From IMG/VR virus record IMGVR_UViG_2850790056_000003: a stretch of 16,924 nucleotides of DNA; one strand, 5' to 3'. Positions 6,001 through 9,000 of the stretch are shown here, one piece after another. A program made the position numbers. Numbering within the stretch: the stretch's first letter is position 1; each line of letters begins with the position of its first letter. The DNA comes from a virus. Taxonomy: Duplodnaviria > Heunggongvirae > Uroviricota > Caudoviricetes.

Positions 6001-9000
6001 TAGACCTGTGCAGACTGACAACGAGGACAATGAATGTTAACGCTGGCCATGAAAGAACCTCAAAAGCCCGCATTATACATCAGATTCAACTAATTAGAGG
6101 CATCACCCCTGAGTTTAACGGACACTCCTTCCTGAAATAGAATGGCATCAGAAGGAGCTAATAATGAGCAGAAAAACCCAACGTTACTCTAAAGAGTTCA
6201 AAGCCGAAGCTGTCAGAACGGTTCTTGAAAATCAACTTTCGATCAGTGAAGGCGCTTCCCGATTATCCCTTCCTGAAGGCACTTTAGGACAATGGGTTAC
6301 CGCCGCCAGAAAAGGGCTCGGTACTCCTGGTTCCCGCACGGTGGCTGAACTGGAATCTGAAATTCTGCAACTGCGTAAGGCGTTAAATGAAGCTCGCCTT
6401 GAGCGAGATATATTAAAAAAAACAACAGCGTATTTTGCACAGGAGTCGCTGAAAAATACGCGTGAATCGAACAATGGCGACAACAATTTCCCATTGAAGC
6501 GATGTGTCAGGTATTTGGTGTATCCAGGAGCGGTTATTACAACTGGGTACAGCATGAACCCTCAGACAGAAAACAAAGTGATGAGCGGCTAAAACTGGAG
6601 ATTAAGGTGGCACATATCCGCACTCGCGAAACATATGGAGCCCGGCGGCTCCAGACGGAGCTGGCAGAGAATGGCATCATCGTTGGTCGTGACCGACTGG
6701 CACGTCTTCGTAAGGAGCTAAGGCTACGCTGTAAGCAGAAACGCAAGTTCAGAGCGACTACGAACTCGAACCACAATCTGCCAGTTGCGCCAAATCTGCT
6801 GAACCAGACGTTCGCTCCTACAGCACCAAATCAGGTCTGGGTGGCGGACCTGACGTATGTTGCCACACAGGAGGGATGGTTGTACCTCGCTGGCATCAAA
6901 GATGTTTATACGTGCGAAATTGTCGGCTACGCCATGGGAGAGCGCATGACAAAAGAGCTGACAGGTAAAGCCCTGTTTATGGCGCTCAGGAGCCAGCGCC
7001 CACCTGCCGGGCTAATCCACCACTCTGATCGAGGTTCACAGTACTGCGCATACGATTACCGGGTCATACAGGAGCAGCTTGGTCTGAAAACATCAATGTC
7101 GCGTAAAGGTAACTGTTACGACAACGCTCCGATGGAAAGCTTCTGGGGAACGCTGAAAAATGAGAGCCTGAGCCACTATCGTTTTAATAACCGGGATGAA
7201 GCCATCTCAGTAATACGGGAATACATTGAGATTTTCTACAATCGTCAGCGTCGTCACTCTCGTCTGGGGAATATCTCCCCGGCAGCCTTCAGGGAAAAAT
7301 ATCATCATATGGCTGCTTAAAAAAAGAACAAATGGTAGTGTCCGCTATTGCCAGTACACCTCAGATATCGCCAACCAGATCCGAACTCCCCATGATGGAT
7401 GCGAGCTGCTCCTCGTTGTAATCCCGCCCAAATACGGTATTACTGGTTTTTACGCAAGCCAGATCAGGCATTGAGGGGGCAAAAAACTCGTAATCACTCA
7501 GATCACCACGCTGGATAAGCTCACGAATCGTTGTAGGCTTGATCAGGCATTCGTAGTACTTGCCCATCCAGGCCGCGAACGGGGTACCGGAAAGCCCAAG
7601 AACCCTGATGTCTTTGTCCCGGATAACCTCAAGTAACGCACGGCGCTTCATGTGTGCTTCATCGATGATCAGCAGATCGATATTGTCAGGGAACGCACGG
7701 CGCTTCATGTGTGCTTCATCGATGATCAGCAGATCGATATTGTCAGGGAACTCACGACGGATCAGCGTGTCAGCGCTGGCAATCTGAATCAGTCGTGACG
7801 GGTCATAGTTAGGGTGATCACGCCATACAAAACTGATTTCTTCCCACGGCAAACCGTATTCGGTGAAACGCTCTGCTGTCTGGTTCAGCAGGATTGTGTA
7901 CGGGCAAACGAACATCACCCGCATACCACGTTCAACCATTCCGGCTGTGACGAATGCTGCAAGACCAGTTTTTCCAGAGCCAGTGAGTGCGTACATCAGG
8001 TACGTGCGATGCTGTTTCCACTCGTGCCGCAGCTGGTTTAAACCGCGCTCCTGTGCAAAGTTTGGGGTGATTTTCAGCATGACGCCCCCTTGCTACGTGG
8101 TTTACCCGTTGCCGGGATCACGTCGATCTCATCACTAACGTATTGTTCAGGATTTCGTGAGCAGCGCAGAAGCACGATACCAGGAATGCCGTATAGCTTG
8201 AGTCTGCGCAGTTTCAGTATTGAACGTGCCCGTGGTGATGCTCTGTCCACCTCGATCGCGCACCGTTCACCAGATGGGGCAACGGCCACGATATCGACGA
8301 ATCCGCGCTTACCGTTGCCCATATCAACCAGATAATTACGTTCGATCGCCAGTCCGGCATCACGCAATTTGGCAGCCAGCACATAATCAAACGTGACCTT
8401 GTCTTTTCCGGTGTAGAATTGGTTTCCGAGCAGGCTGACAACCACATTTTTGATGAACGCGGTACTATTTCTACTGTGATAGTTGGCGTGATAATAATTT
8501 CACAAGAAACCATCCCGCCATATACAGTGATCTACCTAACCTATGGAGCTGTCTTTCTGGTAGTGCCCTTACGGGCACGGATGTTACAGATCTGCCCCCT
8601 TACCCCCTTCTTAGTAAAATTTCAGACAAAATAATTTCACATACAATTATTTCTCAAGAAACAATACCTTACTGAGGTTTTACTCCTTCCGTATCGCTAC
8701 TGGCGAAATCATCCAGCCACGGCTGGCTCTCGCGTACTTCTGGACATACACCCGTAACCGGGTGTTGGCGCTCCGTCTTGCCCTGTTGCCCTTCCTGAAC
8801 GATACAGGCTCCTTGTACCACTCTTCCTGGTACACTCTCGCGTACTCTGCTGCAATTTTTACCCGGGTGGTCGGGTCCAGTTGTAACAATTGCTCCTGTA
8901 TCCAGTCCCGATCAGCATCGCTGTACTGATCGGGCATAACCGTTTTGATTTGCCTGTTCACTCACACCTCCGGTGCGCTGTGTGTCCAGGATTAATCATC

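Follow-up and report, generated by a model that had tools for sequence, protein, structure and literature searches.

The window analysed here, meaning the whole stretch of 16,924 nucleotides of IMG/VR record IMGVR_UViG_2850790056_000003, contains a minus-strand open reading frame (ORF) of 239 aa at 7361-8080 that encodes part of a DEAH-box helicase and is cut at its 3' end by a copy of the insertion sequence IS600. An exact-protein look-up found this ORF on one record only, CP026782.1 (assembly GCA_002949815.1), in which positions equal those of the window plus 3,943,877. The record is that of Shigella dysenteriae serotype 1 (SD1) strain 08-3380, from the PacBio set of Kim et al. 2018 (Table 1, PMC7819885), and the helicase remnant sits in a decayed prophage of this organism. 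From 7364 to 12101, the window is collinear with the early region of phage P13374, comprising the helicase, two small ORFs, cro, a LexA-like repressor, a DNA methylase and an endonuclease of the BsuBI/PstI type, with 97% identity to P13374 over 8479-12101.

The nearest DNA relatives of the truncated ORF, at ~95% identity, are annotated 506-aa DEAD/DEAH-box helicase genes from E. coli prophages and from Stx2a phages such as P13374, TL-2011c and VT2phi_272. In Eru1-type Stx phages, the superfamily 2 (SF2) DEAH-box helicase Eru1A belongs to the non-lambdoid 'Eru1' replication module, which also contains the Toprim protein Eru1B and the DUF1367 protein Eru1C (Llarena et al. 2021, PMC8044961). The SD1 remnant shares with such phages (TL-2011c, P13374; PMC8044961) the order of the restriction-modification genes, LexA-like repressor, cro, two small ORFs and helicase, and over 220 codons it differs from the E. 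coli and phage Eru1A genes by 27-29 nt in 660 nt and by three amino acids (Q20E, P32L and G190C). Judged from this identity and synteny, the gene is the N-terminal 220 codons (5' 660 nt) of eru1A, which in the Eru1-type phages encodes an SF2 replication helicase of 506 aa; however, the SD1 copy is cut after codon 220 by IS600, lacks Helicase_C, eru1B and eru1C (the latter two being absent downstream of the remnant), and has both P32L and a 19-residue duplication. The Eru paper makes no mention of an S. dysenteriae remnant of this type (PMC8044961).

Homology to the intact helicase begins exactly at 7364, placing the boundary between IS600 and the gene at 7363/7364, and the stop codon of the remnant (TGA, 7361-7363) is formed by the last three bases of the element (TCA on the plus strand). 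When the intact 506-aa protein was run against the window with tblastn, residues 1-220 were the only part encoded anywhere in it, so that the 239 aa of the ORF correspond to 220 ancestral residues plus 19 duplicated ones. The 3' truncation by IS600 reported in the first-pass annotation is thus borne out. Pfam assigns ResIII (2.7e-18) and DEAD (9e-12) to the ORF, and the motifs of the N-terminal RecA1 domain of SF2 DEAD/DEAH-box helicases are present, namely ALTGSGKT (motif I, with a P-to-L change), DEAH (motif II, twice) and SGT (motif III). The C-terminal RecA2 domain (motifs IV-VI) is missing: no Helicase_C domain was found in the ORF, which ends at ancestral residue 220, while residues 223-323 of the intact homologue match PF00271. 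Because of the boundary at 7364, the restriction of homology to residues 1-220 and the missing Helicase_C, the ORF is a gene fragment without the second RecA-like domain, and not a functional member of the SF2 helicases. A further lesion affects the part that remains. The Walker A motif (7967-7990, minus strand) reads ALTGSGKT and not the normal APTGSGKT, with the P32L codon at 7985-7987; across the aligned homologues, position 32 is P in 44/50 and L in 0/50. The change is common to all S. dysenteriae 1 copies, and by comparison with these homologues the motif is damaged, P32L being the third lesion of the remnant.

The element that truncates the helicase is a 1256-bp block (6108-7363, plus strand) encoding orfA (HTH_Tnp_1) and orfB (rve), and a near-identical block (99.3%) lies at 2479-3734; the length of ~1.26 kb and the two ORFs agree with IS600 of the IS3 family. 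The terminal sequence TGAGGTGTACTGG is one that we take to be that of IS600, and the name used here is based on this, on the call made in the first-pass annotation and on the SD1 literature. The two copies, 2479-3734 on the minus strand and 6108-7363 on the plus strand, are inverted with respect to each other and bracket a 2.4-kb segment with an IS1 (~5356-6050), a segment that could invert by homologous recombination between them. In another S. dysenteriae-type isolate, a protein on a Logan contig (P0011, corresponding to ~7975-8080 of the window) reads ...YALTG|EVYWQ*, which places an IS600 end (TGAGGTGTACTGGCAATAG) inside Walker A and thus represents a further independent IS600 hit on the helicase remnant.

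Within the remnant, two identical 57-bp units are arranged head to tail with no spacer, at 7635-7691 and 7692-7748, as read directly from the sequence. Tandem Repeats Finder reports the same structure (7635-7756, period 57, 2.1 copies, 98% matches, score 237), and a self-BLAST of the window found no other comparable repeat except for the two IS600 copies; a perfect 57-nt tandem match cannot originate by chance within 17 kb. The units are in frame in the minus-strand ORF, which reads ...LIRRE-FPDNIDLLIIDEAHMKRRA-FPDNIDLLIIDEAHMKRRA-LLEVIRDK..., so the plus-strand copy 2 (7692-7748) is the first in gene order (residues 111-129, DEAH box at 7709-7720) and the plus-strand copy 1 (7635-7691) the second (residues 130-148, DEAH box at 7652-7663). 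Direct reading, Tandem Repeats Finder and the translation of the ORF therefore agree with what had been noted initially, a perfect in-frame tandem duplication in which a 19-residue peptide and its DEAH box are doubled. Identity between the units continues for three nucleotides beyond the second copy (AAC, 7749-7751), as the unit itself begins with AAC, and this exact junction microhomology leaves the register ambiguous by 3 nt; MAFFT, for instance, sets the extra copy at 7695-7751.

One of the two copies corresponds to the 57 bp missing in every other genome compared. All DNA matches from E. coli and phages are split in two pieces, with a span in the record 57 bp shorter than in the query, and a three-way alignment with intact homologues has one clean gap of 57 columns. 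At the protein level, one DExH motif was found in 56/63 homologues, none in 7/63, which are partial sequences, and two in 0/63. The duplication junction was also searched for with two 48-mers, one of the SD1 type and one of the E. coli type, each spanning 24 nt to either side of the junction and designed such that single-copy DNA is unable to seed megablast, and with two IUPAC junction patterns. The 48-mers had no match in 5,426 complete E. coli genomes nor in 50,697 phage records, and the patterns had none in the GTDB species representatives, IMG/VR and the JGI metagenomes. As a positive control, a 48-mer over the normal downstream boundary recovered 98 phage records at 100% identity. The single-copy ancestral state proposed in the first-pass annotation thus holds for the intact homologues aligned as well as for all other S. 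dysenteriae 1 genomes examined, and the finding named there as one that would overturn the proposal, homologous helicases generally carrying the same repeat, was not encountered among the 63 homologues. The same data bear on the idea that the repeat is ancestral or selected, in the helicase family or in a repurposed N-terminal fragment, and provides a functional double Walker B. In favour of this idea, the reading frame is preserved and the ORF is not closed by the duplication. Against it stand the single unit in every phage and E. coli copy and on 117 SD1 contigs, the missing RecA2/Helicase_C half and P32L in Walker A; in addition, an in-frame outcome has a chance of 1 in 3 for a random event. 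An ancestral repeat is refuted by the single-copy homologues, and we regard a functional double Walker B as having practically no chance of being correct.

The distribution within S. dysenteriae 1 was assessed by exact-protein look-up, with a single-copy query of 220 aa from which one unit had been deleted and in which the SD1-specific residues and the end contributed by IS600 were retained. This form, which shares the IS600 stop and P32L with the 239-aa ORF, is present on 117 contigs, including those of Sd197 (SDY_1922) and Sd1617, and a 219-aa partial of it at contig ends was found on six further contigs. By comparison, one contig carries the duplicated 239-aa form, and 124 carry the neighbouring 123-aa gene. 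The protein collection looked up had no 220-aa form in which Walker A retains its normal proline. For alignment at the DNA level, SD1 loci were reached via the adjacent 123-aa gene, giving eight other complete or near-complete genomes (HNCMB 20080, 69-3818, Sd197, 1012, ATCC 13313, CP118616, Sd1617 and BU53M1). Compared with the consensus of these eight, the helicase remnant of 08-3380 has the 57-bp insert as its sole difference, along with one private SNP outside the gene. SDY_1922 of Sd197 (ABB62028.1) and the identical 220-aa SD1 ORFs represent the same locus, with the same IS600 junction, stop codon and P32L, and with otherwise identical remnant DNA, but without the second 57-bp copy. Because 117 contigs have the 220-aa form, with its shared IS600 stop and P32L, and one has the 239-aa form, the IS600 truncation and P32L are older and SD1 lineage-wide, and the duplication is later; the same counts support the recent event that had been suggested from the perfect identity of the two units. 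The copy number at the 57-bp repeat is one on 117 contigs and two on one, with no other states, and thus the locus does not show the variability of a contingency locus or VNTR.

From these comparisons, the duplication is private to strain 08-3380 or to its assembly. It could be that 08-3380 truly has one copy and that the PacBio assembly or its consensus introduced a spurious 57-bp repeat, given that the duplication is found in one assembly only and that the source is a PacBio-only project. Typical PacBio errors, however, are homopolymer indels, and a comparison of ~8.8 kb with other SD1 genomes gave two SNPs private to 08-3380 and no 1-nt indels private to it, a type of difference that other assemblies do show. 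In addition, the site is well inside a 4.46-Mb contig and away from any circularisation overlap, and the insert is a clean, microhomology-bounded tandem copy located at the best imperfect direct repeat of the region, which is a biological signature. An artefact is therefore considered unlikely, though it is the most serious of the alternatives weighed here.

The unit is bracketed by an imperfect direct repeat, with arm A (GATAACCTCAAGTAACGCACGGCG) at 7622-7645 and arm B (GATATTGTCAGGGAACTCACGACG) at 7736-7759. The arms match at 17/24 positions and, in the single-copy ancestor, are 57 bp apart. Short imperfect direct repeats had been proposed initially as a template of the duplication, and the repeat proves to be longer than seen at that time. 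Position pairs reaching 17/24 at spacings of 20-200 account for only 1.3e-4 (0.013%) of those in the window, and the only other site in the window with at least 16/24 matches at a spacing of 57 is a low-complexity patch near 209-220, where short repeats of the TTTGATAC type are found (~209-290). The arms of the E. coli homologue also match at 17/24 positions, with a core of 10/11 (AACGCACGACG/AACTCACGACG) versus 9/11 for the SD1 arms; as it is seen in the single-copy state, the repeat in eru1A pre-dates the duplication. The in-frame outcome is set by the 57-bp spacing of the arms.

Given that this pre-existing 17/24 direct repeat and the 3-bp exact AAC microhomology bracket the unit, slipped-strand misalignment is the mechanism we favour. 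By the time of the last ancestor that the sequenced SD1 strains share, codons 221-506 had been lost to IS600 and the P-to-L replacement in Walker A was in place. Subsequently, on the branch to 08-3380, the 3' end of a nascent strand would have been extended across one arm of the imperfect direct repeat and re-paired with the other arm 57 bp back, through the core AAC(G/T)CACG(G/A)CG with its exact microhomology AAC, and the interval between the arms would then have been copied again, giving rise to the second 57-bp unit. In Lovett's misalignment models, such slippage is reportedly RecA-independent. The exact head-to-tail copies without filler, the junction microhomology, the flanking direct repeat at the endpoints and the single-copy ancestor are the same as in short tandem duplications attributed to slipped-strand events in bacteria, and nothing in the present case is unusual in comparison, except that the exact microhomology of 3 nt, though inside the longer imperfect repeat, is short; this shortness and the poorer core match of the SD1 arms are points against slippage. 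Taken together, we hold with good confidence that this is a recent, strain-private 57-bp tandem duplication in a pseudogene, most likely formed by slipped-strand misalignment during replication, a mechanism that fits the anatomy of the repeat and established models.

An identical product would be expected from RecA-dependent unequal crossing-over between sister chromosomes at the imperfect arms, which are 24 nt long and 57 bp apart. Yet, identity between the arms is only 71% and exact matching at the junction extends over no more than 3 nt, far below the length needed for RecA-mediated exchange, making this route very improbable compared with slippage. Two other candidates were discarded. A hairpin or quasi-palindrome as a promoter of slippage was rejected, since DNA folds of the unit and its flanks were no more stable than those of shuffled sequences (z of +0.4 to +0.8) and only a 10-nt palindrome (TCATCGATGA) is present. 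The lack of a hairpin that could act as a pause site is a point against slippage. An origin linked to IS600 was rejected as well: the repeat is 272 bp from the end of the element, and target duplications of the IS3 family are of 3-4 bp.

A related question concerned draft assemblies of E. coli, in which contigs break in eru1A just after ...DEAHMKRRA and again 8-11 residues further on. In 52 draft contigs, the partial helicase ends in ...KRRA (P0002), and complementary partials (P0066 and P0069, the latter with 492 member sequences) begin 8-11 residues further on, beside a K/R polymorphism. The possibility that the same duplication had broken these short-read assemblies was rejected because the P0002 partials have E. 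coli-type residues (Q20, P32), complementary partials exist and the junction is absent from the complete E. coli genomes. The breaks are probably caused by polymorphism or graph bubbles between co-resident Eru1-type prophages.

Elsewhere in the remnant, a perfect (ACCAATC)x13 array is found at 13347-13438, directly before the AAGGAGG ribosome-binding site of an ORF with a Phage_pRha domain and ending 14 nt before its ATG (13453). Unlike the 57-bp repeat, this array varies in copy number among S. dysenteriae 1 genomes, with 13 (this window), 11, 9, at least 8, 7, 5, 5, 5, 4 and 4 copies, and the length of the called ORF varies with it (131-215 aa). The array is hypervariable and could be a contingency switch for an antirepressor-like gene or simply a useful typing marker. 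Its range of 4 to 13 copies, 5.6 kb away from the duplication, shows that slippage is clearly active in the SD1 prophage remnant, a point in favour of the mechanism proposed for the 57-bp unit.

With half of the helicase core absent, Walker A damaged and the operon predicted to be off, no functional effect of the duplication is expected, and it is probably neutral. The remnant lies downstream of cro, in an operon that, from the gene layout, the intact LexA-like repressor (9291-10004) would keep off. The doubled Walker B would thus have no functional meaning, as the duplication took place in a gene that was no longer functional. It is conceivable that the IS600-truncated, RecA1-only Eru1A fragment has been kept open across S. 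dysenteriae 1, is expressed on SOS induction and interferes with the replication of incoming Eru1-type phages, the 19-residue duplication of the Walker B strand then being a functional variant of an exapted fragment and not neutral decay, but we give this scenario hardly any credence. The absence of the junction in the E. coli and phage records searched, as opposed to the 98 phage records with the normal junction, fits purifying selection in working phages, and under such selection the product of the duplication would be tolerated only in a dead copy. Views of helicase function and of Shigella biology are unchanged by an event of this well-known kind. What it offers is a clean case in which population data reveal the relative timing of a microhomology-bounded tandem duplication and an IS insertion, a hint that the imperfect repeat in eru1A can slip, and a marker that could be typed by PCR for 08-3380 or its close kin.

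The surrounding prophage also deserves a description. The Eru1-type early region of S. dysenteriae 1 (7364-12517), with an intact-looking LexA-like repressor, cro and a BsuBI/PstI-type restriction-modification pair, is 97% identical to that of P13374, the Stx2a phage of the O104:H4 outbreak strain, and the restriction-modification and repressor genes, all of which look intact, are on 125-143 contigs. The remnant lacks the C-terminal half of the helicase, the primase, ninG/H and Q. Two fragments of a late-region junction remain. In the first, 3730-3945, an ORF with the N-terminal part of DUF1737 adjoins IS600; the second, 4432-4732, corresponds over 300 bp to sequence immediately following the Q antiterminator gene in P13374 and E. 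coli prophages, and the interval between the two fragments has no stx. On one side, the remnant is flanked by ycjM/pspE, and the SD1 Stx prophage has been reported to adjoin ycjW; considering these positions, the Eru1-type remnant and the Stx prophage may once have been parts of one region that was split by IS-mediated rearrangement. Finally, between the prophage debris and the suf operon, genes for a Mu-like Mom (PF25680), Com and a resolvase/invertase are located at 289-1811.
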